A stretch of 64,000 nt of DNA from contig JBJEGC010000012.1 of assembly GCA_051874695.1 (NCBI GenBank), forward strand, positions 328 to 64,327, given 5' to 3'. The notes under the pieces are model-generated. The model was not told the DNA's origin. It searched no databases and saw only the letters and a list, made by a program, of their open reading frames with translations. The position numbers and the translations under genes were made by a program. Shown one piece after another: positions 1,244-52,747 of the stretch (within the stretch, counting starts at the first letter, position 1; each line of letters begins with the position of its first letter). The stretch comes from Candidatus Bruticola sp. GTDB lineage: Bacteria; Vulcanimicrobiota; Xenobia; Xenobiales; Xenobiaceae.

Positions 1244-1283
1244 AGGGCTCCGGTTTACCATAAAACCGGCAGCCCTTTTTTTG
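1244..1283. terminator. rho-independent terminator between convergent genes
   Basis: GGGCTGCCGGTTT...AAACCGGAGCCC inverted repeat, flanked by an A-run on one side and TTTTTTT on the other. Confidence 0.6.
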
Positions 1284-1315: not shown

Positions 1316-2407
1316 CTATTTTAAAATTATCGTGTGATCGCTCATCATAGCTGAACGTATATCTTTGGGAGAACTCTGGTCAATAGGCTTGACTATATCG
1401 TAAGCCAATCGAAGCCCAGCGTAAAGACTTATTAAAATCAGAAAAGTACCCAAAGCAAAGCCGCAGTTAGATGTAGCAATGGGGTAGAGACGATAGTCTA
1501 AAGGCAGGAAGCCTAAGAACATTGCTCCTCCCAACAGCCCGAAACTAAAACCACGTTTGTCTGGTAGAACCTTTGCTAGAGCCCAAAAAGTAAGGGGGCA
1601 GCTCATAGACAGAGTGAAAACTGCCAAACACCCGATTAAAGTCTGATCTGACCAAAAAAATAGACAGATAGAGACTATCAGAGAAAAAGACGCCGTTTTC
1701 ATAAAGCCGAATCGATCGCTGAGGAAACTGCCCATCAATTGCCCCAAGGCAACGGCCAACATTAGTGCCCAGATATAATCTTTGGGCCAAGGTGAGTCAA
1801 GTCCGCAAATCAGGTAGGATCGCACCGTCATGGAGCAGACTAACAGTAAAACGGTCAGCACAGTTAGTTTTTCAAAGCTCCAAGGTTTAAAAACCGTATT
1901 GTCTGATTGGAAGCTTGGATTTTTTCTGTACTGGAATACGGCAATGAGGGTCAGGGCAGTGAGAACAGCAATAATGGGCCAGACTGTGGACTCTGTCGGT
2001 TGTCCGCAGCCCGCTGCCGTTCCTAAGTACCACCCTAACCCCCCCATGGCCAGAAATATACTTAGCGGTAGAGATTTACTTTGGCTGTAATTGAGCACTT
2101 CTGCTCCGCTGCCCGCATAGAAAAGGGCACTCCCTAAACCAGCCAGGATGACTAAGGCCAAAGGATGCATGGCAAAGCCGCACCCTACCGCAGCCATCAG
2201 GCAGCCAAAAACGGCCAGAACGGCATTGTGGTTTAACTTATCAGCTAGAATTCCCAGCGGAGCTTGTAGCCCGAAAGCACAAAAATTGTAAATAAGAGCC
2301 AGCATCTCCCAGTTGGCAAAGTTTGGAGCTGCGTTAGCAAAATAAGCAAAAGCGCAAGCAAAGTCGAGCAGAGCATGCGCTAAAGCGTAAACTATAACCA
2401 GACTCAT
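1316..2407 (-). CDS. MFS-like polytopic membrane transporter
   Basis: About 12 predicted hydrophobic helices. GILADKLNHN resembles MFS motif A. Its start overlaps the upstream stop, indicating translational coupling. Confidence 0.6.
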   Translation of the reverse strand: MSLVIVYALAHALLDFACAFAYFANAAPNFANWEMLALIYNFCAFGLQAPLGILADKLNHNAVLAVFGCLMAAVGCGFAMHPLALVILAGLGSALFYAGSGAEVLNYSQSKSLPLSIFLAMGGLGWYLGTAAGCGQPTESTVWPIIAVLTALTLIAVFQYRKNPSFQSDNTVFKPWSFEKLTVLTVLLLVCSMTVRSYLICGLDSPWPKDYIWALMLAVALGQLMGSFLSDRFGFMKTASFSLIVSICLFFWSDQTLIGCLAVFTLSMSCPLTFWALAKVLPDKRGFSFGLLGGAMFLGFLPLDYRLYPIATSNCGFALGTFLILISLYAGLRLAYDIVKPIDQSSPKDIRSAMMSDHTIILK

Positions 2408-3883
2408 TTATTTTTTCTTACTCGGTTTTTTAAATATACTACTCAAGATGCCGTCGTTTCCGGATGAGGTGTTTTGGGATTCTTTCCCAGACGACTCCTT
2501 ATTATCCGCTGTTTCGTGAGCCTCAACCCTGGAACCGTCAGTTTCGTTAGGTTGCACTTGATCTTCCTTTTTGTATTCAAGTGTGCCGTTAACAATCATT
2601 TTTACCTGGCTCTTAGCCACTTCATGAGTAGACAACACGCACATGTGCGGAATATCATTACAGATCAGCTCCGAGACAAAACGGCGCAGCTCCGGAGTAG
2701 TAATGATAACGCTCGGATTACCTGCAGCATGAAGTTTTTCCTTGATACAGGATATAATGCGGTCTGTCAGAGTTTTGAGGTCATCGCTTGTTTCTGTACT
2801 GTTTTGTATATGCTTGAGTTTATGCAGGTCAGCTTCCAATTTATCGCCGGTTACTGCTGCCTGCAGTTCCTCGTTGGGAGTCAAATTGGACCAGCAGATT
2901 TGTCTGGCCAAGGCTAATCTGCAGCTTTCCGCCAGCTTTTCGATAACACTTTCTTTTAGGCTGATATGGTCAATCATACCGTCGCCTACAGTTTCTAAAA
3001 TGGTGACCATGTTGTTTAAAGCAACACGTTCGCGCAGCAGTGACTGTAGAACACGGCGTAAAATGCGGAGTTTTAAGCTGTCTTGAAGGAATTCATTGAC
3101 TACAATTGGATGGGTAATCTGTAAACGGGAAATTAAATTAAAGGTATCTTGCAGGCCCAGAAGTTCGGGAGCAGATTCTAGCATAACACTTTTCAGATGG
3201 GTGAGTAGTACCTGAAGTGGACTAACCAGCAGGCATCCCGACTGTTCAGCCTTCTCTCGAAGATCGGCTTCAATCCATTTGGCTTTCATGCGGTAGGTCG
3301 GTTCAATTGCTGCCCACCCTTCTAAGGCAGAAAGCTGCTCGAATGAACCTATAGCTAAGAATCTATCTAAGTAGAGCTCACCTGAGGCTATAGGGGAGTT
3401 ATGCAGTAAAATTTTGTAGCAGCAGGGATCGAGGTTTAAATTGTCCTTGATGCGCACACCAGCCGGAACTAATCCGGATTCTTTCGCTATTTCATCGCGC
3501 AGTCCCGGCATTGCTGCAACCAGAGGAGCACTGCACTGAGGATCGAGTAAAATTAACAATCTTTTGCCGAGTTCCAAAACAACAGGATCTTGATACACAT
3601 AGGGATCTATACCCGGTTCTGTGGATCCCTCAAACGACATAGTTAGCTCCCCGGCAACGTTCCAACCTTCGTTAACTAAGCGCATAAGGGCCTGTTGTAG
3701 CTCTGCATCCAGAACGCAGTTCTCACCGACATAAAGGAGGGCGTCTTCTTGGTCGCGAGTCATCTTTATGTACACTTGCTGGCCCCTCTCACTGCGTTTC
3801 CAGGGCATAAAATCGTCTTTGTAGCTCTTAAGAGAAAAGAGTTTTATTTCATTTGTTGTTTCATCTATTTGAGGAAGCGGCAT
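2408..3883 (-). CDS. FlhA/SctV-family cytoplasmic domain protein (FHIPEP C-terminal domain only, no transmembrane region)
   Basis: Colinear with FlhA residues about 350-690: LVPAGVRIKDNLNLDPCCYKILLHNSPIASGELYL matches LPPVVHIRDNMDLQPARYRILMKGVEIGSG, and LRILRRVLQSLLRERVALNNMVTILETVGD matches LHKVLQNLLAEKVPIRDMRTILETLAE. No hydrophobic segments. AGGAG lies 13 nt upstream of the ATG. Confidence 0.7.
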   Translation of the reverse strand: MPLPQIDETTNEIKLFSLKSYKDDFMPWKRSERGQQVYIKMTRDQEDALLYVGENCVLDAELQQALMRLVNEGWNVAGELTMSFEGSTEPGIDPYVYQDPVVLELGKRLLILLDPQCSAPLVAAMPGLRDEIAKESGLVPAGVRIKDNLNLDPCCYKILLHNSPIASGELYLDRFLAIGSFEQLSALEGWAAIEPTYRMKAKWIEADLREKAEQSGCLLVSPLQVLLTHLKSVMLESAPELLGLQDTFNLISRLQITHPIVVNEFLQDSLKLRILRRVLQSLLRERVALNNMVTILETVGDGMIDHISLKESVIEKLAESCRLALARQICWSNLTPNEELQAAVTGDKLEADLHKLKHIQNSTETSDDLKTLTDRIISCIKEKLHAAGNPSVIITTPELRRFVSELICNDIPHMCVLSTHEVAKSQVKMIVNGTLEYKKEDQVQPNETDGSRVEAHETADNKESSGKESQNTSSGNDGILSSIFKKPSKKK

Positions 3884-3914: not shown

Positions 3915-3946
3915 ACGGGAACGTTGATAATATTAACGTTCCCGGA
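3915..3946 (-). terminator. rho-independent terminator downstream of the secreted/lipoprotein gene
   Basis: Perfect inverted repeat CGGGAACGTT-gataatatt-AACGTTCCCG, followed on the minus strand by a U-rich tract (GTTTTTATTATTTTC). Confidence 0.5.
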
Positions 3947-3957
3947 GAAAAACTTAT

Positions 3958-4782
3958 TTATATAGCCGGGGTGGGCTGAACGGAACCATCTTCAGGCATT
4001 GTCTCATGATAGTGCGGAGTCGGCACCGCCTCGGGAACTCCGCTGCTGTCTGCAGAAATTGAGTTGTCCTGAATTGCCTCCGAGCTCTCGGAGACACTTT
4101 GCGCGTTAGAAGCTGCATCGGAAATGCTGTCTGCTTCTTTCGGTACATAATCGGTGCTAGGAGAAGGTTCGTCTTCAGAAACTATGTTGGTCTCTACCGG
4201 CTCATCTTTGGGCTTTGATAAAGGAGTTCCTTCTAAAGGAAGGCTGATCACTTTGCTCGTCGGAGCCTTTTGACTGGCTCCGGGAAGATTAAAGTTGATA
4301 GGAGTTTCTGCTTCAATATAAGCTAATTCTCCGGAAGAAGTAAGGGCCAGATTAACTCCCAGCGCTTCTTTGAGGTAAGCAGCCAGAGGAGGGCAGTTGA
4401 CCGATTTTACATTGCCGGTTACTACCACTATGCTGCTGTTTGGGCTTTTATAAGCTTCTTCAGGAACATCGGAAGGAGCCTGTACCAAAATAGCCTCTGA
4501 GGGAGCTTTGGAGTTTAGCAAAATAAAGAAAGCCTTAATATTGTTAGGGGCCTGCCCTCCTAAGGCAGCCAAATGTTCCTTTATATCCGGAGCGGAACTG
4601 TACAGTGCCGTTCCTTCAATACTCTCGTAGCGGTCAGCAGCCGGAGATGACATTTTGAAGCTGCTGTTTTTTATAACAGTCGGAGCCGGTTTTGTGGCAG
4701 AATTTTTGCTGCAAGCGGGAGTGAAAAGAGCTGCAGCGCCGAGTAAAGCAATGAGTATAAAAGTTGAGAACTTACATTTCAT
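3958..4782 (-). CDS. secreted protein / probable lipoprotein with acidic Ser-rich C-terminal tail
   Basis: N-terminal signal peptide MKCKFSTFILIALLGAAALFTPAC, with a Cys after the hydrophobic core in a loose lipobox. The C-terminus is low-complexity and rich in D, E and S. Confidence 0.55.
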   Translation of the reverse strand: MKCKFSTFILIALLGAAALFTPACSKNSATKPAPTVIKNSSFKMSSPAADRYESIEGTALYSSAPDIKEHLAALGGQAPNNIKAFFILLNSKAPSEAILVQAPSDVPEEAYKSPNSSIVVVTGNVKSVNCPPLAAYLKEALGVNLALTSSGELAYIEAETPINFNLPGASQKAPTSKVISLPLEGTPLSKPKDEPVETNIVSEDEPSPSTDYVPKEADSISDAASNAQSVSESSEAIQDNSISADSSGVPEAVPTPHYHETMPEDGSVQPTPAI

Positions 4783-4891
4783 GTTATTTAGGCCTCAAAA
4801 TAAAAAGTTGTGCGGCAGGACCGCAGCCTATCTCTCTGGCGTCAATTAGCAAATACCAACTCTCGAAGTTCCTTATTTTGTGTAAATATCC

Positions 4892-7800
4892 TTGCATAGG
4901 AAAAGAGAGATCCTTTCTCGAAGGTTTCACGCAATGTCTAAGTTCTACACTATCGAAGAAGTTTCTGAATTAATCAACGTTCCGGCCGACGTTATTCGTG
5001 AATGGATAACTGAAGGAAAAGCATCTGCTTCCCGTCGTGCCGGCGATGTGGTTTTGCGTCATCACGAGGTTCAGCGTCTCCTAGCCGAATATGGAGAAAA
5101 TGATGACAGCGCTAAGGAAACCGGCAACACTGATATAAAAAGCGGCTCCTTAGATTCGTCGTCTAACGGTTACATTGGCGGATCTGCTCAAAATAATGCT
5201 GACGATCCGGCCAGTTACTACGGGTATCCCAATCCAGAGCCGGAACCTGAGCCCGAGCCGGAAGAAACAGAGAAATTTAAGCCTCCGACGGCCCCCACTC
5301 CGCCTTCGGGTGTAGGTGCCTCTCCGGCTAAACTTGTTTTGAATAGCCGAGCCGTTGCCATTGTGAACAGTATTCCCGATGGTCCGATCGATGGCGACGC
5401 TACCGTTAGCATTTCTGCGCCTATTACTTTTGAAAGCTTAGTAGGAACTGCCCCGGCTCTAGATTATTCGTCTTTTTACGATCGAGAACTCGATGAGTAC
5501 GAATCACAGTTGCGCTATTTGGAAATGGAACTTCCGCTGCGTCCCAGTTCTTCTGAAAATGGTTCGGCAGCCGATCAGCGTGTTTCTACGTCGAATTTAG
5601 ACGGTAGAAATGCCAAGGGCAGTGAAGATGAATCTATTAGCGCAGCTCAACTTGAGCATGCTATCGAGCGCACGGTTGAACCTTTGGCCAGAGCTCAAGC
5701 CAGACTCATCAAGTTGTTTAACGAGTCACGTGAAGAATCGCGGCGGCCTACAGCCCTGCCTGCTCCCGGCGGCAGTGCTTCCGACAAAGCTTTGGCTCGT
5801 ATAGAAGAGAAGCTCGCTAAAATGCAGAGCAAACTGGAGACTCCTACCGAATCGAACAATAAGCCTGCCAGTCTTTTAGCAGAAAACGTAACTAACAGCT
5901 TGCGCCAAGAACTAGCCTCTTTACGAACTTTCTGCGCAGAGCGTTTCACAGATATAAATGCTAAGCCTGTTGCTCCTTCTCAGGAAATTATCGATAGTTT
6001 GAAAGAGATAAAAGCCTCTGTAGACAGGTTGGCCGCTAAGCAGGATCCTTCGTCTATCAGTGTCGGCTTGAGCAGCTTACAGAAAAAGTACGATCTGCTA
6101 ACGCAGAAATATAACAATTTACGTATTGAGCATGAGCGCATGGCCCAAGAACACTCTGCTGTTAGTGAGGCCGGAGCTGATGTCGATGATATTCTGAACC
6201 GTTTAGAGGTACTGCGGGCTCCTCTCGATGCTTACGGCCTTGAAGTTGGCGATTTTATGGAAAAAATTGTCAGTCATATCGATGAGCTGAGTACAGCTAA
6301 GCGCGATTTGGTCAGAAAATACTCCGATTTGGAAAAGAATTACAGCGAGTGTGAGGCCCGTTATGAAGCTTGTGAAGAGGAGTCGTCTGCTTTCCAAGTT
6401 TTAGTCGGCAATCTGCAGCAGGAAAACCGTACTCTCAAAGACGAGCTTGATAATTTGGAAGCTGAAAATTCTAAAGCTAAAGAAGAACTAGTCGAGTTGG
6501 AAAATTTGCGCGAAACCTGTCTCAATTTGCAGCATACGGCTAGCGGTTCCGATGAGGCTTTCACCAAACTTCAAGAAGAGTATTTGGGCTTGCAAGAACA
6601 GAATAAAGATCTGCTTAGGAAATTGCAAAGCGCCGATAACGAGCTTAAAGATACGCTTTTAAAAATGCAGGAAGGCAAATCTGACAGTGCAGCTGCGGCA
6701 GCTGCTTTGCAGTCTGAACTGAGCAGTAGAGAAGAAGCGCTGCGCGATTTTGAGGCCCGCATTGAAGAGCTTTCTATCCAGTTAGGTAAAACGATTGAAG
6801 ATTATGAGGCCTCTTCAAGTGAGCTGAATGAAATGAAGTCTCTGCTTGGAGAAGCTAAAGAAGAGGCGGAAGAGGCCCGCAGCCAGTTGGCTCAGGCAAA
6901 TGAAGCCTACAACGACCTTTCAGAGGCTTACAAACAGAAAGAAGAAGAGGCTAAAGGAGCCAAAGCGGAGCTGTTGCAGCTGCAGACAGTGGTAAGGTCT
7001 ACTCGGGCTCAGTCAGCTGAATTAGAAAATATGGCTGCTGAAGCTCACAAAGAGGCCTCGGAAGCTTTAGCTAAGCTCAAAGAAGCTGAGAATCGTTTGG
7101 AAGAGGCCGAAAAAGATTTTGAGGCTCAGCAGGTAAAAACCGAAGAAGTTGAGGCCTCCAGGGAGGAACTTCGAGAACAGCTGAGTTTAGCTCAGAGAGA
7201 GACTGAGGAACTCTTGGCTAAAGCTCAAGAAGAGAGTCAGCAGGCTTTAGAGCTTATGCAAAGTGAGCTTGAAGCAGCTAGGGCGAAAGCTGAAGCCAGT
7301 GCTATTGAACTGGCTCAGCAGATTGAAAGCATGGCAGCCAAAGATAAGGCTATCATGGAAACTTCTGCCAGGATGGAAAGTGAAAAAGTGCGCCTATTGA
7401 GACGAATTAATACGCTCCAGGCCAAAAATGAAGCTTTACAGGCAGAAATTGAAGAAAGTCACGAGTTAGGCAACAGCTACGAGTCTGCTAAAGTTGTAGA
7501 GTTGCAGGATCGTCTTGAGGCTGTTACTTTCGAACTCAATGAAACTAAAGACAAGTTAAAAGAATATGAAGAACGTGGTGCCACCGACGGTAGCGGTAGT
7601 CTGGAGCTAGAGGAAGCTTTAAACCAGCTGCAGACTTTAAAGTCTGAAAATGACGAGCTGCGTTACGAACTGTCAGTGCGCGATAATGCCGATGATTTGC
7701 ATAAGCAGTCAGCCGAGATGCTGGAAGCGATAGCTAATTTTGAAGCTGAGAATGCAGAGAAAGATCGCCTTATCGAGGAGTCGCACCAAGATCGGGCTCG

Positions 7801-7987
7801 TTTGCGCGAGGAGTTGGAGCGTGTTAAGCAGTCTCTCTTTGAGCAGCAGCAGCTTTACGAGCGTGAGCGCAAAGAGTGGTCTGAAATTTTAGCTAAGCAG
7901 GTTAAGGGAGAAGGCGTTGACACTGGAGTAGATTCTCCGCGTCGAAGTGGATTTAAACTGTTTAGAAATAGGGGTGGTTCTATTTAG
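4892..7987 (+). CDS. HTH (MerR/excisionase-type) DNA-binding domain fused to a (PE)n linker and a 750-aa coiled-coil protein
   Basis: The N-terminal FYTIEEVSELINVPADVIREWITEG...RHHEVQRLL matches the HTH_17/excisionase fold. PEPEPEPEPE follows. From about aa 250 to the end the sequence is E/K/A/L/Q-rich heptad-like, as in SMC arms or myosin tails. Likely true start: the ATG at about 4934 (MSKFYT). Confidence 0.8.
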   Translation: MHRKREILSRRFHAMSKFYTIEEVSELINVPADVIREWITEGKASASRRAGDVVLRHHEVQRLLAEYGENDDSAKETGNTDIKSGSLDSSSNGYIGGSAQNNADDPASYYGYPNPEPEPEPEPEETEKFKPPTAPTPPSGVGASPAKLVLNSRAVAIVNSIPDGPIDGDATVSISAPITFESLVGTAPALDYSSFYDRELDEYESQLRYLEMELPLRPSSSENGSAADQRVSTSNLDGRNAKGSEDESISAAQLEHAIERTVEPLARAQARLIKLFNESREESRRPTALPAPGGSASDKALARIEEKLAKMQSKLETPTESNNKPASLLAENVTNSLRQELASLRTFCAERFTDINAKPVAPSQEIIDSLKEIKASVDRLAAKQDPSSISVGLSSLQKKYDLLTQKYNNLRIEHERMAQEHSAVSEAGADVDDILNRLEVLRAPLDAYGLEVGDFMEKIVSHIDELSTAKRDLVRKYSDLEKNYSECEARYEACEEESSAFQVLVGNLQQENRTLKDELDNLEAENSKAKEELVELENLRETCLNLQHTASGSDEAFTKLQEEYLGLQEQNKDLLRKLQSADNELKDTLLKMQEGKSDSAAAAAALQSELSSREEALRDFEARIEELSIQLGKTIEDYEASSSELNEMKSLLGEAKEEAEEARSQLAQANEAYNDLSEAYKQKEEEAKGAKAELLQLQTVVRSTRAQSAELENMAAEAHKEASEALAKLKEAENRLEEAEKDFEAQQVKTEEVEASREELREQLSLAQRETEELLAKAQEESQQALELMQSELEAARAKAEASAIELAQQIESMAAKDKAIMETSARMESEKVRLLRRINTLQAKNEALQAEIEESHELGNSYESAKVVELQDRLEAVTFELNETKDKLKEYEERGATDGSGSLELEEALNQLQTLKSENDELRYELSVRDNADDLHKQSAEMLEAIANFEAENAEKDRLIEESHQDRARLREELERVKQSLFEQQQLYERERKEWSEILAKQVKGEGVDTGVDSPRRSGFKLFRNRGGSI

Positions 7988-8136: not shown

Positions 8137-9819
8137 ATGGGGCAAAAAGATAAAAATTCCACCGATATAAAGCAACTGGGGCTAGTTGCCGCACTAATGA
8201 GTTTGGGCTATGTATTCTGGGTAGTCGGTGCTATGGAAATGGTAGAGCGCTTGGCTTATTATGGCGTACGTGCAGTAGCTGGCCTTTATGCAACAGCTCC
8301 CGTATCTGAAGGAGGTTTAGGAGTTACTGCTGCCAAATTCGGTATCATTTTAATGGTTTGGTCTGGTTTTCAAGGCTTTATTCCAATCTTTGTCGGTGGC
8401 TTAGCCGACCGTTATGGATATAAGCTTATGATTGGCATCTCTACAGCTGTGAAAATGAGTGCTTATCTGATTATGGCAGCTTTTCCTACTTTTTATGGCT
8501 TTTTAGTAGGCGCTGTATGCTTAGCTACAGGTACAGCTATATTCAAACCCGGTATTCAAGGCACTTTGGCAAAAGCTACTAAGCCGGAAAACAGTTCCAT
8601 GGCTTGGGGAGTTTTCTACCAAACGGTTAATATTGGAGGCTTTATCGGTCCTGTATTAGCCGGCTTTTTAAGAAAAATGGAGTGGAGCCATGTCTTTTTG
8701 GCTTGTGCCATGATTATTGCCTGTAATTTTTTGCTGTTATTAACTTATAAAGAACCGGGCTTAGAAGAACGCTTGGCTAAAGCCAAGGAGCGTGAGGCTA
8801 AAAAAGAAAAGCAGAAGAATATAGTTTGGGAAACTATTAATGAATTGCGCCGTCCCCATTTGTTTGTATTTTTGGCCATTTTTACCGGTTTCTATTTTAT
8901 GTTTAACTGCATGTTCGATGTACTGCCTCTTCACATTCGAGATTGGGTTGACAGCCGTGATGTAGTTTCCACCGTGTCGCATTTCCTCAATACTGATAAT
9001 GCCGTAGTCGGTTTTATCATGATTTTAGATAAGACTAAATCGTATATTCAGCCTGAAGGCATGTTAAATTTGAACTGCGGCATGATTATGTTTACTTGTT
9101 TCTTCTTTGCTTGGTTGTCATCTAAAATGCGCATTCTGCACAGTATAGCTTTGGGTACGGCTTTGGCTGCTGTTTCTATGTGCTTAATTGGCATATCTCA
9201 TATGGGCTGGTTCTGCCTGTTGTCTATTGCCGTTTTCAGTGTCGGTGAAATGATGTCTAGTCCTAAATTTAGTGAGTTTGTAGGTACTCATCTGGCTTCG
9301 CATGATAAAAAGGGAATGTACTTAGGTTTGGGCCAGATGTCTTTTGCTATAGGCTCCACATTGGAAGGGTTGGTTGCTCCTCGACTGTACGATAAGCTGG
9401 CTTCTAAAGATACTTTTTCCAGACAAATGCTGGTTGATAGTAATTTAATGACTTCTGCTCAAGCAGAGGCTATTAAGCCTGGTGAGGCTTTTGAACAACT
9501 AGTTTCTTTGAGTGGCCGAAGCGCCGACGAGTTGACTCAATTTATGTACCATCACCACAATGTAGCCAGCATGTGGGAAATTATGGCTTGTATCGGTTTT
9601 GCTACTGCAGTACTCATTTTAATCTATGCTGTTTGGTGGGCTAAAACTGGACACAGTGCCGCTGTAGCAGATTCTGCTCAAATAAAAGATGCGGATGGTG
9701 AAAGTAGCAGCTCAACTGAACAAAAACTATCAGTATCAGCTTTATCCGAACAGGCGACAGATGCAGAGTCTACTCGGAATACTAAGGAGCAGAAGGTAGA
9801 TAGTTCCGGAAGTCATTAA
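8137..9819 (+). CDS. MFS transporter, POT/PTR2 (peptide transporter)-like
   Basis: ERLAYYGVRA is a POT signature (ExxERFxYYG). GGLADRYGYK motif present. 12 or more hydrophobic segments, plus an acidic C-terminal tail. Confidence 0.7.
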   Translation: MGQKDKNSTDIKQLGLVAALMSLGYVFWVVGAMEMVERLAYYGVRAVAGLYATAPVSEGGLGVTAAKFGIILMVWSGFQGFIPIFVGGLADRYGYKLMIGISTAVKMSAYLIMAAFPTFYGFLVGAVCLATGTAIFKPGIQGTLAKATKPENSSMAWGVFYQTVNIGGFIGPVLAGFLRKMEWSHVFLACAMIIACNFLLLLTYKEPGLEERLAKAKEREAKKEKQKNIVWETINELRRPHLFVFLAIFTGFYFMFNCMFDVLPLHIRDWVDSRDVVSTVSHFLNTDNAVVGFIMILDKTKSYIQPEGMLNLNCGMIMFTCFFFAWLSSKMRILHSIALGTALAAVSMCLIGISHMGWFCLLSIAVFSVGEMMSSPKFSEFVGTHLASHDKKGMYLGLGQMSFAIGSTLEGLVAPRLYDKLASKDTFSRQMLVDSNLMTSAQAEAIKPGEAFEQLVSLSGRSADELTQFMYHHHNVASMWEIMACIGFATAVLILIYAVWWAKTGHSAAVADSAQIKDADGESSSSTEQKLSVSALSEQATDAESTRNTKEQKVDSSGSH

Positions 9820-9892: not shown

Positions 9893-11371
9893 TTAGCAAT
9901 GTGTGTGCACACGGCGATATGTTTCACAGAGCTGAGAGCTAGGAGAAGCATTAAGATATTTTTTCATATTTTTTCTAAATACGTTAAAGGTTTGTATAGC
10001 CAGTTGTGGCTGGCATGCGGCTGCATAAGCACACATTAAAATTTGAACGCACTGTTCATTGAGAGGATCAAGAGAAGCTGCCTGCGAGGCAGTTTCAATT
10101 GCTGCTGACCAATCTTTTTGGCTGTATTCATGCTTAGCTAATTCAAGTAGGGCCTGTTGTGAAATGTAGTCGAGTCTTACTCTTTTCATTTCTGCCCATT
10201 CCATAGAACATTGGCACAAAAAATGCCCCTGGCTCAGTTTCTTGATAGAAATAAGGTGTTGAAGCAGCTTTTGCGATCGATATTCTGACCAATGCTGTTC
10301 CAATACGAGCCAATCTGCTTCTATATGAAGTTTAGAATTGAGCGCTAGTGAAGCTGAACTGCGTATTATGGGTATGAAATTGGGACAGACCTGACGAAAG
10401 ATTTTTTTTATGACAGATACGGCTTTCCAAAGATTTGTCTGCCCACCGCTGTCTGGCCAAAACTCTTCAATAAGTTGATCTGCACTGAAGTCAGTATGGC
10501 TGCTTGCCAAGCGCAGAAAAAGATATTTGATTTTTTGAGTTACCCACATTTTGTCGTCAATGGGTTGACCGTTCAAGCTGATACGGCATTGACCTAAGAG
10601 GGACAACTCAAGCTTGGGGAGTTTCTGTTCAGAAGCTCCTGGCAGATCTTGGACCGATGACATGGAAGAAATTATTATTTGGCGGGCTAAAGCAAATTTT
10701 GGATGGAAGTAATTCTGCGTAAAACTGCCTTCCCAAAGCTCTTTATCTGGTAGAGCGAAATCATTATTTTGCTCCCATTTCAGGGTACGCAAAACAGCAT
10801 TAATTTCAATTTCTTGTACGGTAGGAGCATCGAGCCCGGCTTGTATGGCCAAACGTTTAGCTACTGAACTAATATGTTGGGCTGTCTTAATGACTTGGGT
10901 GGAAAGTTCACCCTTACAGAAACTACCGAGCAGAGTTTTGATAGACCACGAGTGCAAGGCCTGCAGGCGCAGATTGTACTCGCAATTTTGTCGGTAGCGA
11001 ATGTTTTGTCTTATTAAACAGAATACTACTGCTAAAAAAGTTTTCAGTTCGAAGGGTTGACGCAGACAATCTGTCGTACCCGGATGGAGGGCTCTGATCG
11101 AATCTTCCTCACTGGCATTTCTGGTTATAACCAGAACCGCCGCCTCTCTGAGATGACTTTGTACCGTTAAGACGGGCAGCAAGGCCTCGGGATTGTCAGT
11201 ACAAGTATCTAGCACAATTAGATCGAATGATTTACGCGAGGAGATCGCGACAGCGTATTCCCCCCTGGACGCAGCCGTCACCTCAAACCCTTCGTCTTGA
11301 AGAGCGCGGCTGAGCATATTTCTCAGGGAAGCGTCATCTTCAAGCACCAGGATTCGTGCTGTCTTGATCAC
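9893..11371 (-). CDS. response regulator with receiver domain, winged-helix and BTAD (SARP-like) C-terminal domain
   Basis: The N-terminal ILVLEDD...FDLIVLD is a CheY-like REC. The middle region resembles an OmpR-type winged helix (LSLLGQCRISLNGQPI...LWKA). The C-terminal ...DWSAAIETASQAASLDPLNEQCVQILMCAYAAACQPQLAIQTF is BTAD-like, as in AfsR/DnrI. Confidence 0.65.
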   Translation of the reverse strand: MIKTARILVLEDDASLRNMLSRALQDEGFEVTAASRGEYAVAISSRKSFDLIVLDTCTDNPEALLPVLTVQSHLREAAVLVITRNASEEDSIRALHPGTTDCLRQPFELKTFLAVVFCLIRQNIRYRQNCEYNLRLQALHSWSIKTLLGSFCKGELSTQVIKTAQHISSVAKRLAIQAGLDAPTVQEIEINAVLRTLKWEQNNDFALPDKELWEGSFTQNYFHPKFALARQIIISSMSSVQDLPGASEQKLPKLELSLLGQCRISLNGQPIDDKMWVTQKIKYLFLRLASSHTDFSADQLIEEFWPDSGGQTNLWKAVSVIKKIFRQVCPNFIPIIRSSASLALNSKLHIEADWLVLEQHWSEYRSQKLLQHLISIKKLSQGHFLCQCSMEWAEMKRVRLDYISQQALLELAKHEYSQKDWSAAIETASQAASLDPLNEQCVQILMCAYAAACQPQLAIQTFNVFRKNMKKYLNASPSSQLCETYRRVHTHC

Positions 11372-11898: not shown

Positions 11899-12525
11899 TT
11901 GAGCTATATATGCCAAATTGGGGGGTCAAAATTGAATAACCATTCTGATTCGGTTTGGAAAGTTCTCTCAACGTTGTCATTGCGCTGTTTAAATGCGCAC
12001 AAATTAGCAGAAATCAGACATACTGGTCTGACTTTGCTTAAAAAAGAACGTGGCGGCAGTGCCATCATTATGTCAATATTTATTATTACTATTATGATGA
12101 TTTTAGCCGCCACCTACCTGATGTCTCTGCAAACCGAGCGCCATTTTTCTGCAGTTCAGGAGCGCCGTCTGCAAGCCTGGTATTTAGCTGAATCGGGGCG
12201 AGATTATTTCCTCAATTACTGTAGTATTGGTTCTGCCGATACTTTATTGGCTGCACCGGGCAACACTTTAAAAGCGACGCAACCTGGTGAACATGGGGAG
12301 CTTATTTTAGCTAAAGTTTGCGTGCCAGAGTATTCTGCTAATTATTACTTTGAAATATCTTCACTTAAACCAAATGTTATTTGTGTGAGGGGAGTTGTTT
12401 ACGACACATTAAGCAGCAGTGGCCAGCCTGCCTGTTTAGAGAAAAAAATCTATTTGACTGGCAGTTTTTCAAAGGGGTGGGGAAATGCTTTCTACGATAA
12501 ATTGGCTGAGGAAAACGAAATATAA
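11899..12525 (+). CDS. minor pseudopilin-like protein (PilX_N / GspK-like hydrophobic N-segment); start uncertain
   Basis: ERGGSAIIMSIFIITIMMILAATYLMSLQTE resembles PilX/GspK N-termini (QRG-ALIV...). Annotated TTG start; alternative starts at about 11932 or 12070. Confidence 0.5.
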   Translation: MSYICQIGGSKLNNHSDSVWKVLSTLSLRCLNAHKLAEIRHTGLTLLKKERGGSAIIMSIFIITIMMILAATYLMSLQTERHFSAVQERRLQAWYLAESGRDYFLNYCSIGSADTLLAAPGNTLKATQPGEHGELILAKVCVPEYSANYYFEISSLKPNVICVRGVVYDTLSSSGQPACLEKKIYLTGSFSKGWGNAFYDKLAEENEI

Positions 12526-13162
12526 TCAGCGCGGAGTCACTATCATTGAGTTGTTGATTTGCTGCGCTTTAACGGTAACTTTTTTAGGTTTGGTAGGGCG
12601 ATTAGCTTCGGCGGCAGCTGAAAATTACAAGCATAGCGAAAAAGGAATGAGGGCCATGCGCTCGGCAGCCTTAAGTGCGGAAAACATGAGCTGCGATTTG
12701 CGTTTATGTCAGAGTATTCTATGGCCCAAGGTAAGCTCTGAAAAGTGGCTCCAAGGATATTCTGTGAAAGGTGATAGTCAGGTCGCCTTCAAGTTCATTT
12801 TTAGACAATCTCCTCCGGTAGGCGGTGCGCCATCCATAATCGGTTACCATTGGGATTCGGTCAGTCGGGAACTGACTAAATGTATCTATCGCCCTAATTT
12901 TAATCCGCAGGCGAGCAATTTGAACGACTCCGGACAGATCATTTCTCAAAAAATTTTAGCACGCGATCTGTCAGCTATTTCCATTAATTCGGTAAACTGT
13001 CGTCTGCGCGGAGGAGCACAATTTTTAGAACTGAGCTTAACTGTTTCATTTAATGAACTAGATCGGGGGCTTCGCAAACTAAATAATATTTCAACTCAGC
13101 CTCCTGAACTGTTCAAGAGTATTTATACACAGTTCGAAATCAGGGAGGGGGCGTCTTTATGA
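12485..13162 (+). CDS. type IV pilin-like / T2SS pseudopilin (prepilin N-terminal cleavage/methylation motif)
   Basis: QRG|VTIIELLICCALTVTFLGLVG is a canonical G|xTxxE prepilin leader plus hydrophobic helix. Overlaps the upstream gene. Confidence 0.65.
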   Translation: MLSTINWLRKTKYNQRGVTIIELLICCALTVTFLGLVGRLASAAAENYKHSEKGMRAMRSAALSAENMSCDLRLCQSILWPKVSSEKWLQGYSVKGDSQVAFKFIFRQSPPVGGAPSIIGYHWDSVSRELTKCIYRPNFNPQASNLNDSGQIISQKILARDLSAISINSVNCRLRGGAQFLELSLTVSFNELDRGLRKLNNISTQPPELFKSIYTQFEIREGASL

Positions 13163-14424
13163 AAAGACAAGGTCAGTTTGCTTATACGCTTATAGAGCTA
13201 ATGGTCGGTCTGTTTCTGATTTTTTCTGCTGCCAGTTGCTTATTTAGCACTTACGCTTTTGGAACTAAAGCTAATTTAGGCACCGATCGCTTCACTACAG
13301 CTATAAATTTAGGACAGGCCAAAATGGAAGAGCTGCAAAGCCGTCCCTATACATCTCTGCCTGATCGACAGCAGGGTAAATTCGCCCAACCTTACCAGAA
13401 TTACAGTTGGAGTGCCGATCTTTCGGATTTTAGTGAAGACTTCGCTTTGCTCACTCTTTACACCGGTTATAACGGGGCACCTCTATGTACTCTGCGTCGT
13501 TTGTTGGCTAAAGACTGCCCGTCTTCAATTTCTGCTCACATTTACGATAGTGAGGCGTCCTTTACCGATCGAACTTTTAGTTCTCCTTTTGGTAAATATA
13601 ATTTTTGGCTAACTCGTTCTGTCGAGCAGAAACTTGTAGGCAGTTTTCCCAAAGGAGAAATGGGAGCCATGTGCGGTTATCCCGCGCAAGGTATTGTCTG
13701 GCTGGCATATTTGCGCCAGCCTAAGCTGTGTCGGCTTATATTTGATGGCGACGGCAATCATATAGGAACTAAATTGGTTAATGTGCCTAAGCTGACTTAC
13801 GGATACGAAGCTGATATTGTCGATATGGCCGCCGATCAAATGGGGTGCTTTGTGTTTTGTGCCGATAGGGCTAATCAGTCAGTGTGGGTTCTAGATGATT
13901 CTCAGAATCAGGGACAGGTTTCATGGAGCAACGGTAGGTGTTTAACTAGTCGACTCAATCCTCTAAAAGATTTGCGATCTATTGCCTGCGATCAATATGG
14001 GACTTCTGCCTGGATCTGTGAGGGGCAGCCTCGTCGCTTGCGTCAATTCTATTGGGGCAGTTTACCCAAAAGTTTTGAGGAAAAAATCAATAATTATGCA
14101 GCTTGGGGGAGTTGTTTTGAGGTGCCTTTTTCCGGTTCTGGTCGCCTTCACAGTGTGGCCGTCAATAGTTGGGGATCGGCGGTCTATACCATCGACAACA
14201 ATTTTCTATATGGCTTGCTTTTTCAGGAGTGTAGCGGCCTTGGACAGTGGTCTAAAACACCTATGCCGTCTGAATTATGCCGTTCCGCTCCCAGAGCCCT
14301 GTGGGTCGATCCCGGCAGCAGCATAATTTATATCAATACTTTGTACGGAGGACAATGGGCTGCTAAACCACTCACTGATGGTTCTCTATCTCCGTCTTGT
14401 TTCAGCAAACTTAGTTGGAGGTAG
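13159..14424 (+). CDS. large pseudopilin-like protein with non-canonical prepilin N-terminus
   Basis: MKRQGQFAYTLIELMVGLFLIFSAAS looks like a GspI/PilV N-terminus, but with spacing G-Q-F-A-Y-T-L-I-E. ATGA-type start/stop overlap with the upstream gene. Confidence 0.55.
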   Translation: MKRQGQFAYTLIELMVGLFLIFSAASCLFSTYAFGTKANLGTDRFTTAINLGQAKMEELQSRPYTSLPDRQQGKFAQPYQNYSWSADLSDFSEDFALLTLYTGYNGAPLCTLRRLLAKDCPSSISAHIYDSEASFTDRTFSSPFGKYNFWLTRSVEQKLVGSFPKGEMGAMCGYPAQGIVWLAYLRQPKLCRLIFDGDGNHIGTKLVNVPKLTYGYEADIVDMAADQMGCFVFCADRANQSVWVLDDSQNQGQVSWSNGRCLTSRLNPLKDLRSIACDQYGTSAWICEGQPRRLRQFYWGSLPKSFEEKINNYAAWGSCFEVPFSGSGRLHSVAVNSWGSAVYTIDNNFLYGLLFQECSGLGQWSKTPMPSELCRSAPRALWVDPGSSIIYINTLYGGQWAAKPLTDGSLSPSCFSKLSWR

Positions 14425-15455
14425 TGTCTATGGAAAAAATATTTTTATATCGCCAGCTAGGTGTTATGTTAGGTTCAGGAGTTCCCATTGTTAAAGCCTT
14501 GGAGTCTGCTGCCGGGTGTTGCAAATATTATAAAGATAAGCAAGTTTGGTATGAAGCTGCCGAAGCGGTCAGTCGCGGAGAAAATCTGACTCAAGTTTGG
14601 AGTTCAAACCCTAACTATTTTGAAATGATAGAAACTGGCCTTATTAGAGCAGGGGAAGCTTCTTGTTCAGTAGCCGAAATATGTCTGTACATTTCAGAGT
14701 TTTTTTCATTTGAGCTGCATATGAAGCGGCGATTAAGGGGAGCTCTTCAGTATCCTTGTGTAGTTTGCTTCAGTTTTATTGTGCTGAGTATTATGATGTC
14801 ACTCTATATTGTACCTTCATTTTCTCCGGTATTTGCCGCTCTGACCGATTTGCCCTGGTCTACATCTGTTTTACTGCTTTTTATCAATTTGCTAAAAAGT
14901 CCGCTATTCTGGATTTTGATTGGAACTGCTATTTTAGGATTTTGGGTATTTTTTAAGTTTTACCGCCGGTTTGCTTTGGTCCGGCGCCAGTGGCAGCTGC
15001 TTGTTTTGACTACTCCGCTGCTGGGTAAAATAGTCAAAAATATTGTAACAGCTCGTTTTTGCCACACTATGTCTATGTTGGTGCGCAGTGGCCTGCCCTT
15101 AAACAATTCATTACAGATTGCCGGACTGTCTTTAGCCAACTATCCTTTGGCTGCAGCTTTAGAACTAGCTGCTGCGGAAATAGATGAAGGTTCGGAATTG
15201 AGCCAAGCGTTGCAGGCAGGAGGTTACTTTTCGTTATCATTTATAGCTGCTTTGAACGTAGGATCGGAATCAAGTTGCCTTGACTGCGTTTTTGAGCGTC
15301 TCAGCCGCTCTTATAATGAGCAGGTAAAGTTAGATATTGAGAAATTGTCAGTATATATAGAGCCTGTAATGATAGCCGTTATGGGAGTCGCCACAGCCGC
15401 AGTACTTTTCGCTTTATTTGCACCTCTTTATGAGTACATTAATAGGCTGACTTAA
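14415..15455 (+). CDS. type II secretion / type IV pilus platform protein GspF/PilC family
   Basis: Two T2SSF-type repeats (FLYRQLGVMLGSGVPIVKALE...; ...TARFCHTMSMLVRSGLPLNNSLQIAG...) and three hydrophobic helices. 10-nt overlap with the upstream gene. Confidence 0.8.
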   Translation: MEVVSMEKIFLYRQLGVMLGSGVPIVKALESAAGCCKYYKDKQVWYEAAEAVSRGENLTQVWSSNPNYFEMIETGLIRAGEASCSVAEICLYISEFFSFELHMKRRLRGALQYPCVVCFSFIVLSIMMSLYIVPSFSPVFAALTDLPWSTSVLLLFINLLKSPLFWILIGTAILGFWVFFKFYRRFALVRRQWQLLVLTTPLLGKIVKNIVTARFCHTMSMLVRSGLPLNNSLQIAGLSLANYPLAAALELAAAEIDEGSELSQALQAGGYFSLSFIAALNVGSESSCLDCVFERLSRSYNEQVKLDIEKLSVYIEPVMIAVMGVATAAVLFALFAPLYEYINRLT

Positions 15456-15481
15456 AGATAATTTTAAGGGGGAGGGAATGG

Positions 15482-16531
15482 ATGTCAGATAAACCTTTCA
15501 TTATTCTTTGCGATCAAGATTCTGCTATCGGAGACTTACTTTTTTGCACTTTGCAAAAATTAGCGGGGAGAATAAGCCGTCTTAGAGGGCGCTCTTCACT
15601 TCTGGCGGCTGAGTTGTTAGAGCGGCGTGCAGACTTGTTAATAGTAAACGGCACTGCTAAGGTCGGCGAATTGCTGCATATTATGCGTTGCTGTAAGGCA
15701 AAATATCCCGATCAAAAACAAATTTTTATTACTGCTGTTTTTGAAGGCTATGAAGAAGAGCTGAAAGCAACTCAATTGGACGGTTTAATTTTTAAACCGT
15801 TTAAGATTAACCAACTAAATGATATGGTAGCAGGTTTGCTTCCTAGCCTTAATAGAGCAAATCAGCAGGTCTCTGTCGATGTTATTAGCCGAATTGAACA
15901 ATTGAGCAAAATAAAAATAGCGGTTGTCATGCAATACTTGAAGTCTTGGTTAACCACACTACAAACTGTTTGGCACAACTTCAGTCTTAGAGAACTTGAA
16001 AATGAACGCCTTATAACTTTAAAAACTGTTTATCGTTTTTGTTTGTCCAAGTTTTCTAGCTACCGGTTTGCTTTAAAATTGTGGCATTATTTAGAGTTTT
16101 TGGAGCGTCATTATCTGCTTATCAAGGGAGGAGCCGATGTCGAGCGGGAGGCGCTAAAGTTCCATTACACTATGTTAAAGAGCAAACTGGAGAGAGGAAT
16201 GCAGGGCAAGTTTATCTCTATGGGTGAAGGAGACGGATTCGGGCCTAAGCTCGATCTTGTCCAATTCGGTCAGTTTTATGAGCGCTTGCGCCGTCAAGAA
16301 GTTAGCTTCGGCTGCTTTCGTTTAGCCGCTCAGGCTAGGCTGGTGCGATGGGCTTGTGATCGGCCTCCTATGAATGAGCTAAAATATTGGGCTCAAGGAC
16401 GTCGCTGTTTAGAGCGTCACAGACATTTATCCTACAAAGCCAGTGTAGCTGAAGCCGAAGCTGAGCTGAAGTTTTTGGCTGCTGCGAGTGAGCCGGGGCT
16501 ACAGGAGGTATTCAGCCAAGTTTGGGGATAA
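15482..16531 (+). CDS. receiver-like (pseudo-receiver) domain protein of unknown function
   Basis: The N-terminus IILCDQD...ADLLIVNG...IFITA...LIFKPF follows the CheY fold pattern, but has N where the phospho-acceptor Asp is expected. GGGGGAGGG RBS. C-terminal domain unknown. Confidence 0.5.
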   Translation: MSDKPFIILCDQDSAIGDLLFCTLQKLAGRISRLRGRSSLLAAELLERRADLLIVNGTAKVGELLHIMRCCKAKYPDQKQIFITAVFEGYEEELKATQLDGLIFKPFKINQLNDMVAGLLPSLNRANQQVSVDVISRIEQLSKIKIAVVMQYLKSWLTTLQTVWHNFSLRELENERLITLKTVYRFCLSKFSSYRFALKLWHYLEFLERHYLLIKGGADVEREALKFHYTMLKSKLERGMQGKFISMGEGDGFGPKLDLVQFGQFYERLRRQEVSFGCFRLAAQARLVRWACDRPPMNELKYWAQGRRCLERHRHLSYKASVAEAEAELKFLAAASEPGLQEVFSQVWG

Positions 16532-34920: not shown

Positions 34921-36135
34921 ATGGCTAAGTTTCCTCTTCTAGACGACAATTTCCCTCGTATAATTCCCTCTTTCAGACAGTTGGTGAAGATAATGTCTGA
35001 ATGTGTTGACGGTGGAGTGAGTTTAGGCTGCACCGCTTTTGAATTCCGCCAGTGTGATATTGCTCTTGGGACGGCTTTGGGCAATTTTATGGAAGTTTTG
35101 CGGTTGAAGGAACTTCCTCCTGAGAGAAATGAAGCAATTAATGAGATAGTGCTTCTTTTTACTCGCATGAGTTCGGAAATGGCTAAATTAGAGACTGCAT
35201 TGAGCATGGATGCTACGGCGGCCGCTGTTAATTGTGTAGCTAACATATACGAACACTTAAAAGACTTAGAAGAATTAAATATGGACCTGAAGGCTGCTGT
35301 AGGTGATAGCCATATTTATTCTGAAGTACCGGTTGTTGACAGTTTGTTGCGTGCGGGCAACTTTGTGCTGGAAACTAACGGCGCAGAGTGGGATGCTTTG
35401 AGTGCCCGTCTGGAAGCACTTATACCTCAGTGGAATGAAATAGTTTCCGGCAGCGGTCTGCCGGAGGAATTGATTCGCCACGACCATGCTTTGGAACGCC
35501 TGGTTGAAGTGCTTAACGAAAGAAATTTGGAGGCGCTTCCTGATGTTTTGGAAGAGGTCAAGTCTAGTGGTGAAGATTTGGTCAATTTTCAGGACAGCCA
35601 GATAGACGTCGAAAATACTTCCGTAGTGCTCTGCCCTTATTGCGGCAAGCCCATGTTGGGAGGAAGTAAAAAGTGCTTCTCTTGTGGAGCTAGGATGCCC
35701 GAAGAGTTTGAACGGGGCGGTTCTTCCGACAAAGAAACAGATAAGGGCGAGGCCATCAGTGGAATGCCTGAGTATGTACAACGCATTTTCGATGTTGCCC
35801 AAGAACTTCCCAACAATCCTAAAATGATACGTCCTTTCAAGAGAGCTGTGGGTGAGCTGCGCCGTCGTGTTGCCGATGCCAGTTCGCGCATCAATAAAAT
35901 GTCTTCTTCTAAGTTAAAAACTACTCCGGAAGAACGTGAAAATATTGACGGTATTATCGACCTCTCCAATACTTGTATAGACAATTTCTCCAAGGCAGTA
36001 GAACTGTTAGAGGAATTTGAACCTCCTGTTGATCGATTCCATATGCAGTGCGCCTTAGAGGTTATGGTTGAAGCTGTAAAGGAGATGCGCGGCATAGGTG
36101 GCTTGGCCCAAAAATATCGCAATTCGAAGAAATAA
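34921..36135 (+). CDS. hypothetical protein, paralog A of tandem pair with central zinc ribbon
   Basis: Aligns along its full length with the next gene: FPLLDDNFPRIIPSFRQLV / LPKLDDSFPKLIPHLRSFV, NLEALPDVLEEV / NLEELPAALESF, CPYCG...CFSCG / CPKCG...CPKCG. No signal peptide or TM helix. Confidence 0.6.
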   Translation: MAKFPLLDDNFPRIIPSFRQLVKIMSECVDGGVSLGCTAFEFRQCDIALGTALGNFMEVLRLKELPPERNEAINEIVLLFTRMSSEMAKLETALSMDATAAAVNCVANIYEHLKDLEELNMDLKAAVGDSHIYSEVPVVDSLLRAGNFVLETNGAEWDALSARLEALIPQWNEIVSGSGLPEELIRHDHALERLVEVLNERNLEALPDVLEEVKSSGEDLVNFQDSQIDVENTSVVLCPYCGKPMLGGSKKCFSCGARMPEEFERGGSSDKETDKGEAISGMPEYVQRIFDVAQELPNNPKMIRPFKRAVGELRRRVADASSRINKMSSSKLKTTPEERENIDGIIDLSNTCIDNFSKAVELLEEFEPPVDRFHMQCALEVMVEAVKEMRGIGGLAQKYRNSKK

Positions 36136-36187: not shown

Positions 36188-37384
36188 ATGCTAGATACGC
36201 TGCCTAAGCTGGATGATTCTTTCCCCAAATTAATACCTCATTTGCGCTCTTTCGTGAGCGGTTTAGAACATTGTATCGCTAATAAAGAACCTTTGCTCCA
36301 GCTGCGTGAGGAACTGCACCAGTGTGATGTGGTTATGTCCGCTTTTATACTGGCCTTCAAATACAGTGTACGCGGTTACGACTATAACGAAGAAGAATTG
36401 CCCCATATCGCCCAGGTTTATGCCGATTTTGAAGGAACAGCTGGCGTACTGTCATCCCTTATTTGCGATTTAAAGAGTGAAGATGCTGAAGGGGCGGTGC
36501 GTGACGTCAACGCCTTGGTGGAACAGCTTAAAGAAACCGAAAAGAGTTTGGCCAAGCTGGAAGAACTGAAAAAAGCCAAGACAAAAATGTCTGAGTTTGT
36601 CGGTATAGACAGTGTATTGAAAGCTGGCTTGGCCGTAGCTGAGGGGCGCCGTGAGTGGGACATGTTGGAAAATTGCTTGGATTCTCTCCGTCCGGCCTTT
36701 GAACGTTTAGTGGCCTGCAATTCCCTTCCCGACCATATAGAAGATTACTGTGAAGCTCTTGATGATCTGTTCAAAATTTGTGAACAGCAAAATTTAGAGG
36801 AACTTCCTGCTGCTTTGGAATCGTTTAAAGGCGCCAGCGAAATAATGATTGCCAAATATAATGAGGTTAAAGCCAGTAAACAAGCTAACGACAGCTCGCG
36901 CAGCTGGAATTGCCCCAAGTGTGGAGTTGACCTGGGAGAGTGGGATAAGCGTTGTCCTAAGTGCGGCTTGCGTCTGCCTGATCGCTCTGTCGTAGAACAG
37001 AATTTGAATGAATGTTGTAATTGCACAGATTTACCAGGTTGTGTGCAGATTATATTTGACAGTATAAATGGTCTTCGCGATGGCGGTGATTGTTGGAGGG
37101 CTTTCTCGGAAGGCTTGAGCGAGTATGCGGCTTTTGTAGAAGACTTAAAGTGTAAGTACGCTTCTTTGCCGGAAAGCGCCTTCAATAGTTCTTCTTCTGC
37201 AGGTGAGGCTTTAATTTTGTCCCGTGAAGCTGTTGAAGAAGGTTTAACTAAGCTTGAAAACGCCTATTACGTGTGTGAGCATATGCAGAATGGCGGAGAA
37301 GTTACCGATGAAGAACTGGATGCCGCTTTGGAAAATATGGTTGAAGGAGTAGAACAGACTCGTCAAATAACTAGTATGGTCTAG
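36188..37384 (+). CDS. hypothetical protein, paralog B of tandem pair with central zinc ribbon
   Basis: Same architecture as 34921-36135, at about 25-30% identity. The WNCPKCGVDLGEWDKRCPKCGLRLP ribbon lies between two alpha-helical domains. Confidence 0.6.
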   Translation: MLDTLPKLDDSFPKLIPHLRSFVSGLEHCIANKEPLLQLREELHQCDVVMSAFILAFKYSVRGYDYNEEELPHIAQVYADFEGTAGVLSSLICDLKSEDAEGAVRDVNALVEQLKETEKSLAKLEELKKAKTKMSEFVGIDSVLKAGLAVAEGRREWDMLENCLDSLRPAFERLVACNSLPDHIEDYCEALDDLFKICEQQNLEELPAALESFKGASEIMIAKYNEVKASKQANDSSRSWNCPKCGVDLGEWDKRCPKCGLRLPDRSVVEQNLNECCNCTDLPGCVQIIFDSINGLRDGGDCWRAFSEGLSEYAAFVEDLKCKYASLPESAFNSSSSAGEALILSREAVEEGLTKLENAYYVCEHMQNGGEVTDEELDAALENMVEGVEQTRQITSMV

Positions 37385-51538: not shown

Positions 51539-51600
51539 AAAATTTCCTATAATGAAAGATCACAATCGCTGACAGAATTAAGATAACTATTTATAAGCTG

Positions 51601-52632: not shown

Positions 52633-52747
52633 ATGGTTTTTCTTTGCCTGACTGTGAATTAAGATTTATAAGTAAATTTGGCCCAAGCGGAAGCGGACAC
52701 AAAGTTTACACCGCAGAGAACTGTTCACCACCGATTGTATCTTGAAC

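Follow-up and report, generated by a model that had tools for sequence, protein, structure and literature searches.

A stand-alone, membrane-domain-free family of FlhA cytoplasmic-domain proteins in the Vulcanimicrobiota and Eremiobacterota

To our knowledge, the cytoplasmic domains of the flagellar protein FlhA and the injectisome protein SctV (FlhA-C and SctV-C) are in described systems always the cytoplasmic half of some membrane protein of the type III secretion system (T3SS), and our literature searches returned no description of a stand-alone FlhA-C family. Here we analyse a 64-kb stretch of DNA (the window) from Candidatus Bruticola sp., a member of class Xenobia of the Vulcanimicrobiota, which carries a gene for a 491-aa protein consisting largely of FlhA-C. 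We show that this is a real gene, and that it belongs to a monophyletic, Vulcanimicrobiota/Eremiobacterota-restricted family of FlhA derivatives that have no membrane domain. The FlhA-C fold itself is known; what is new is a stand-alone family with an N-terminal domain of its own and a conserved partner gene. The gene and its segments are as follows.

2408..3883, minus strand: stand-alone FlhA-C-like gene, 491 aa, with its stop codon at 2408-2410, recognized as an open reading frame (ORF) with a match to FHIPEP
3605..3883, minus strand: family-specific N-terminal domain (aa 1-93), predicted as beta-beta-beta-alpha-beta
2579..3604, minus strand: FlhA linker-C and D1-D4 core (aa 94-435), placed by profile alignment to the PDB
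2411..2578, minus strand: disordered polar/acidic spacer followed by the basic amphipathic motif GILSSIFKKPSKKK (aa 436-491)

The Pfam FHIPEP model (PF00771) matches the protein with an E-value of 7.3e-63, over profile positions 326-655 of 657 only, corresponding to aa 94-425; positions 1-325, which represent the polytopic membrane N-domain with its FHIPEP loop, are unmatched. The NCBIfam FlhA model (TIGR01398) scores 236.5 bits, below its equivalog cutoff of 772.1, and aligns at model positions 334-670 only, and the SctV model scores 101.7 bits (cutoff 692.25). When a profile of the family is compared with the PDB, aa 93-430 align end to end with FlhA-C; the top match is Bacillus subtilis FlhA-C (3mix, E-value 1.3e-89), and the same alignment also extends to Salmonella FlhA. 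An AlphaFold2 (AF2) model of the 491-aa protein, with a predicted local distance difference test (pLDDT) score of 84.4, superposes on Salmonella FlhA-C (6ch1) in a Foldseek search with an E-value of 1.2e-30 and a TM-score (target) of 0.88. Since the FlhA score is well above that for SctV and the best PDB match is B. subtilis FlhA-C, we conclude from these comparisons that the protein descends from flagellar FlhA, not from injectisome SctV, and that it is not an FlhA equivalog. An NCBI entry identical to it is labelled 'FHIPEP family type III secretion protein [Candidatus Bruticola sp.]'. An earlier, sequence-only reading of this DNA had identified the product as the FlhA/SctV cytoplasmic domain without a transmembrane N-domain, and had proposed that FHIPEP should match only the C-terminal part of its model; the profile coverage and the superposition bear this out.

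Context and negative searches covered the window and 29 related loci, together 515 kb. As tblastn queries, the membrane domains from ten full-length FlhA proteins, that of E. coli among them, find nothing in the window or in the 29 loci. Pfam scans detect no flagellar or T3SS family among the 39 window ORFs of at least 150 aa or among the neighbours of the gene in the most divergent branch of the family, and E. coli FliE, FliF, FliG, FliI, FliJ, FliM, FliN, FliP, FliQ and FliR have no tblastn match in the 515 kb. No T3SS core genes (FlhB, FliPQR, FliI, FliF/G) were found in the window or the 29 loci, in agreement with the sequence-only reading, which had seen none nearby. Because the membrane domain is missing, the 491-aa protein cannot itself be an export gate.

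A search of a 5.8-billion-protein set returned 82 short homologues with E-values of 6e-78 or better (most 423-553 aa, two shorter), followed by a gap, after which full-length FlhA proteins (mostly 680-850 aa) appear from 2e-41 and worse. The family comprises approximately 80 sequence clusters. Where a source is named, it is in most cases assigned to Eremiobacterota, Vulcanimicrobiota, Xenobia or UBP9, although the labels of a small number of metagenome-assembled genomes name other groups. In a neighbour-joining tree built from the D1-D4 columns the family forms a single clade apart from ten full-length FlhAs, and mean identity is 47 % inside the family and 32 % between the family and FlhA-C. 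Comparison with the closest relative shows saturation at synonymous sites, the proportion of synonymous differences (pS) being 0.73-0.83. The proportion of nonsynonymous differences (pN) is 0.061 in the 93-residue N-domain (pS 0.80) and 0.097 in the FlhA-C core (pS 0.73), and rises to 0.31 in the tail. The protein is under strong purifying selection, which is strongest on the N-terminal part that is not derived from FlhA. Two ORFs are antisense to the gene, at 2474-2917 (plus strand, 147 aa) and 2742-3086 (plus strand, 114 aa); they are most likely spurious, since coding conservation on the minus strand is strong.

The N-domain sits at the point where the core of FlhA is joined to the N-terminal linker segment and the membrane domain. 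In an alignment of 38 family members, F25, P27, W28, G34, Q36, K40, G53 and L69 are near-invariant, as are N71, G73, W74, G78, E79, F84 and G86, and the domain modelled alone has the beta-beta-beta-alpha-beta order (pLDDT 88.5). It has no match by sequence in Pfam or the PDB, and a fold search revealed no known relative. When an N-domain profile was run against 1.84 billion representative proteins it gave 16 matches only, all of which begin no more than about 45 residues from the N-terminus of proteins that have the size of family members or of fragments of them. Judged by these searches, the approximately 90-aa domain is exclusive to the family.

On the upstream side lie a lipoprotein gene and, beyond it, a large divergently transcribed gene that recurs with the family.

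3916..3944, minus strand: hairpin terminator after the lipoprotein gene, with a 10-bp stem and a U-run (free energy -14.9 kcal/mol, z -3.3)
3958..4782, minus strand: putative lipoprotein gene, 274 aa, with a signal peptide and lipobox-like Cys seen in the sequence
4783..4933: intergenic region between the divergent genes; a motif and a hairpin are both conserved in a four-locus alignment
4934..7987, plus strand: partner gene, helix-turn-helix (HTH) and coiled coil, 1017 aa, from a conserved ATG at 4934 (the mechanical ORF begins at a TTG at 4892)

The partner protein has an N-terminal HTH of the HTH_17/MerR type, a coiled coil of approximately 900 aa and a conserved C-terminal segment of approximately 110 aa ending in GFKLFRNRGGSI, with the consensus G[WF]xLF[KR] across orthologues, a basic aromatic motif that resembles the ends of the FlhA-C-like tails. 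MerR_1 matches the window protein at 24.4 bits (cutoff 21.6), and HTH_17 matches the orthologue from locus L016 at 33.6 bits (cutoff 27). The orthologues range from about 410 to 1215 aa, the coiled coil being highly variable in length and both ends conserved. Profiles of these two ends, compared with six-frame translations, place the gene immediately upstream of and divergent from the FlhA-C-like gene in 21 of the 24 testable loci, a count that omits five contigs too short to tell. A search with the C-terminal profile recovered six short fragments only, and on this evidence the partner appears to be a family found only in the Vulcanimicrobiota/Eremiobacterota phylum. The intergenic motif CTCTTTTCCTATGCAAGGA.ATTT.CAC is conserved in four related loci and contains a TCCT-N5-AGGA palindrome; a hairpin with a T-run, approximately 25 nt upstream of the lipoprotein start, is kept in the same four loci through base changes. 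These elements could represent an operator or a leader structure. The lipoprotein gene itself has no Pfam family and belongs to a cluster (c2) present in 11 loci, all of the Xenobia type, and its terminator sits 33 nt upstream of the FlhA-C-like start codon; a secreted protein or lipoprotein gene with its own hairpin had been noticed at this position, correctly.

We surveyed the neighbourhood more widely by scanning one genome per GTDB species, which gave 27 loci in which ORFs were called and their products clustered. The order mutL, polysaccharide deacetylase, partner gene and divergent FlhA-C-like gene recurs across the phylum, and in the window this stretch contains an insertion of approximately 9 kb with a major facilitator superfamily (MFS) gene, a response regulator and a pilin/PilC-like cluster. 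The MFS_1 transporter (560 aa; 8137-9819, plus strand) is directly downstream of the coiled-coil gene and is followed by a response-regulator/BTAD protein (9893-11371, minus strand). Both (clusters c3 and c6) are kept beside the partner gene in Xenobia-type loci, and therefore in Bruticola-type loci the two divergent genes, partner and FlhA-C-like, each precede a transporter gene. At 11899-16531 (plus strand) there are pseudopilin-like proteins, whose N-terminal methylation motifs are weak, together with unannotated ORFs and a platform protein of the T2SSF/PilC type (14415-15455); this cluster, between the partner and the deacetylase/mutL genes, looks like an insertion relative to other clades.

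Residues of known importance in FlhA were located by aligning the protein with E. coli FlhA, the numbering of which equals that of Salmonella for all residues cited. The Salmonella FlhA residues I440, D456, F459, L461 and T490 form a dimple and have roles in chaperone binding (PMC5916509, PMC5932034). They correspond to I178, E194, Y197, M199 and T228 of the window protein, and other family members have the same or a chemically similar residue at these positions. Of the GYXLI motif the G and LL are retained, R391 (R129) is kept, and E351, a linker contact residue, aligns with E89. The C-terminal tail was surveyed in all 82 members. In the model of the window protein pLDDT is below 50 at aa 446-482, and approximately two-thirds of the members end in a basic-hydrophobic motif such as GILSSIFKKPSKKK, KKEGVLGFLKGG or GFWKTRKKK. 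The FlhA-C-like tails have hydrophobic moments of 0.42-0.59 and those of the partner 0.61-0.87, as compared with 0.48 for the E. coli MinD tail. That the FlhA-C-like tail may act as a MinD/FtsA-type membrane-targeting sequence is offered as a lead.

We tentatively favour, at a little short of an even chance, a reading in which FlhA-C has been reused as a docking platform, probably at the membrane, that works with the coiled-coil protein. The platform would probably be oligomeric and would lie on the inner face of the cytoplasmic membrane, held there by the C-terminal tails or by partners. Its retained D1/D2 dimple would bind a helical ligand, for which the HTH-coiled-coil partner would be the prime candidate. 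Through this partner the complex could be connected with DNA, or the partner could act as a regulator at the divergent promoter region. The wider suggestion of the sequence-only reading, that this is a domesticated or re-purposed export-gate module, is favoured by the conservation of the family, the selection acting on it and the lack of a membrane domain or of flagellar genes. A more specific form of the docking-platform reading, which we regard as doubtful, is that in a flagellum-less lineage FlhA-C has been turned into a membrane-associated assembly, capped by the N-domain and operating with the giant DNA-binding coiled-coil protein; such an assembly might, for instance, tether the chromosome or nucleoid to the membrane or be a docking hub for a non-flagellar process. 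If true, this would be the first use of an export-gate ring outside type III secretion.

Several points weigh against the docking platform and its elaboration. The oligomerisation, the membrane binding and the coiled-coil contact of the FlhA-C-like protein are all three predictions. Cooperative ring formation in Salmonella is driven by contacts of linker residues E351, W354 and D356 with R388, R391, K392 and K393 of D1 (PMC5916509). W354 and D356 are replaced here by I92 and P94, W354 is not conserved in the family, and the basic D1 patch R388/R391/K392/K393 corresponds to P126/R129/D130/E131, with a family consensus of R-[DE]-E; ring assembly, if any, must therefore use different contacts. 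Approximately 22 of the 82 members, constituting a clade of 423-442-aa proteins, are without the C-terminal tail, and the AF2 model of the window protein shows no tail helix. The partner gene is missing in three loci of the divergent branch (L018, L026 and L027). Finally, one study reports Eremiobacterota sequences near those of Chloroflexota in flagellar protein trees (PMC10284905), and therefore some members of the phylum may be flagellated.

This last point bears also on an alternative that we consider unlikely, in which the protein is a soluble decoy or, as the sequence-only reading had also proposed, a titrating regulator. It would bind chaperone-substrate complexes or FliJ so that they no longer reach the true export gate of a canonical flagellar T3SS with genes at another site in the genome, and the reading is possible only if such a system exists. 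The presence of Eremiobacterota in flagellar phylogenies (PMC10284905) and the retention of the chaperone-binding dimple residues would both suit such a role. The synteny, however, is with housekeeping genes and the HTH-coiled-coil gene, flagellar genes being near none of the 29 loci nor in the window, and the strongest constraint falls on an N-domain that is exclusive to the family and would not be needed in a simple decoy. Moreover, Vulcanimicrobium alpinum, the phylum's single cultured species, is without flagella and a flagellin gene and relies on type IV pili for movement (PMC9758169), and a FliN-like gene is the sole flagellar entry in its gene table; this also counts in favour of the docking-platform reading.

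The motility of V. alpinum (PMC9758169), together with the PilC-like T2SSF and pseudopilin-like genes at 11899-16531 in the window, raises a second alternative, that the cytoplasmic platform serves not the coiled-coil partner but a different machine of the envelope, for instance type IV pili, some exporter or a Tad-like system. This seems decidedly unlikely, since the 11899-16531 cluster is found in Bruticola-type loci only, the corresponding position in other clades having no adjacent cluster of this kind, and no conserved secretion gene accompanies the family.

A third alternative concerns the gene immediately downstream.

1316..2407, minus strand: gene for a 363-aa MFS-like membrane protein, its ATG directly after the TAA of the FlhA-C-like gene
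1250..1269, minus strand: terminator-like hairpin with a T-run, which ends the two-gene unit of FlhA-C-like and MFS-like genes

The sequence-only reading was right that both ORFs are present, with products of 491 aa (2408-3883) and 363 aa (1316-2407), and it emphasized their pairing as the defining feature of the locus, coupled through an overlap of stop and start codons. The genes do directly adjoin (TAA-ATG, with a 0-nt spacer), but they abut without overlapping. The 363-aa protein has about 12 hydrophobic segments, arranged as 6+6 with a central loop (by eye and in a Kyte-Doolittle scan); Pfam MFS_1 matches it with an E-value of 1.8e-6 and 27.6 bits, short of the 33.4-bit gathering score, and it has no PDB relative by sequence. 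That the FlhA-C-like protein is an accessory cytoplasmic subunit of this transporter is consistent with the abutting codons, the single terminator after the pair and the maintenance of the arrangement in eight related loci. These eight, all with at least 60 % identity to the window protein, are the only loci in which the MFS-like gene follows, and other clades have different genes downstream: rph (RNase PH), a cutA-like gene, or a DUF1800/DUF1501-like pair, the latter two labelled by eye only. Homologues of the MFS-like protein are widespread in Clostridia and other bacteria, some of them named FSR-family MFS by JGI, and in two genomes outside the family the small MFS-like gene is part of another three-gene unit, without an accompanying FHIPEP gene. 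A subunit role across the whole family is thus largely refuted, and as an explanation of the window protein it is very improbable. The MFS-like gene is a lineage-specific neighbour, and it is the HTH-coiled-coil gene, not the MFS-like one, that is kept across clades. The sequence-only reading had mentioned neither this partner gene nor the conserved N-domain, the tail motif or the existence of a family confined to one phylum.

In several clades, among them the most divergent branch, only a few bases separate the FlhA-C-like gene from an rph gene directly after it (L009, L011-L014, L018, L024 and L027), and this looks like the ancestral arrangement. The small downstream ORFs were considered as chaperone-like partners and set aside, being by eye cutA-like and rph housekeeping genes. 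We note separately that in Oscillibacter and metagenome contigs (L031-L036) the small MFS-like gene is the first in a conserved unit of three, the other products of which are unannotated proteins of 107-114 aa and 270-276 aa; both of these genes are absent from the window.

Least of all does the gene resemble an artefact, a pseudogene, a split or frameshifted half of flhA (which the sequence-only reading had kept as an option) or a functionless decaying relic, a scarcely credible reading that has the missing membrane domain in its favour and nothing else, and that is refuted by an intact architecture that over 80 sequence clusters and 29 loci have in common, by saturated synonymous sites while pN is 0.06-0.10, by the tblastn searches, which find the FlhA membrane domain in no frame of the window or the 29 loci, and by the upstream lipoprotein gene, which is separate and has its own terminator. 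The MFS-like neighbour was also considered as a diverged FlhA membrane domain and rejected as unrelated, hhalign giving a probability of 0.2 % against the FlhA N-domain.

Elsewhere in the window, four radical-SAM proteins, of which two carry B12-binding domains, are encoded at 47197-54763 (minus strand) beside a 671-aa DegT-type aminotransferase fusion, and a further DegT gene (41030-42133) and a heparinase II/III-like gene (38696-41017) are also present; this run may be a sugar- or lipid-modification cluster. Two adjacent genes at 34921-36135 and 36188-37384 (plus strand) encode proteins of approximately 400 aa, each with a weak zinc-ribbon match at the same position, and are probably tandem paralogues. 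Rfam and tRNA scans of the window gave no match.

A conserved and selected FlhA-C that is free of the membrane domain would demonstrate that independent reuse is possible for the export-gate ring, or at least for its chaperone-docking fold, and the family provides a natural system for the function of FlhA-C apart from the ion channel, as well as a possible marker for flagellum loss in Terrabacteria-related phyla. It also offers for characterization two families annotated without function, the N-domain and the HTH-coiled-coil partner. The database labels 'FHIPEP family type III secretion protein' and 'flagellar biosynthesis protein FlhA' are misleading where the genomes may have no T3SS.

The partner protein, taken alone, recalls the B. 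subtilis tethers Noc and RacA in its putative DNA-binding head, extended region and short terminal motif that may bind membrane or a partner; the likeness is offered purely as a functional analogy. For the FlhA-C-like protein the closest comparison is with FlhA-C of Salmonella (3a5i/6ch1) and B. subtilis (3mix), with which it shares the four-subdomain fold and about 29-33 % identity, aligning end to end from linker-C to D4 with the dimple, the G and LL of GYXLI and R391 kept. It departs from FlhA in having neither the ion-channel domain of eight transmembrane segments nor the N-terminal part of the linker, the 90-aa N-domain standing in place of the membrane-domain attachment; in the charge reversal at 392/393 and the lack of W354; in the added C-terminal spacer and basic amphipathic motif; and in not being encoded with T3SS genes in the window or the 29 loci. 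The SctV cytoplasmic domain has the same fold (Foldseek E-values of about 1e-21 to YscV, CdsV and MxiA) but is more distant than FlhA (101.7 versus 236.5 bits), and the differences from FlhA-C apply here too. The nearest precedent for orphan flagellar export genes is provided by Chlamydia pneumoniae, in which FlhA, FliI and FliF are flagellar export components kept without a flagellum (PMC2830194). The model for chlamydial FlhA, PRK05910, has 584 positions. Chlamydial FlhA retains its membrane domain and coexists with an injectisome, whereas in the family described here the cytoplasmic domain alone survives, with new terminal modules.

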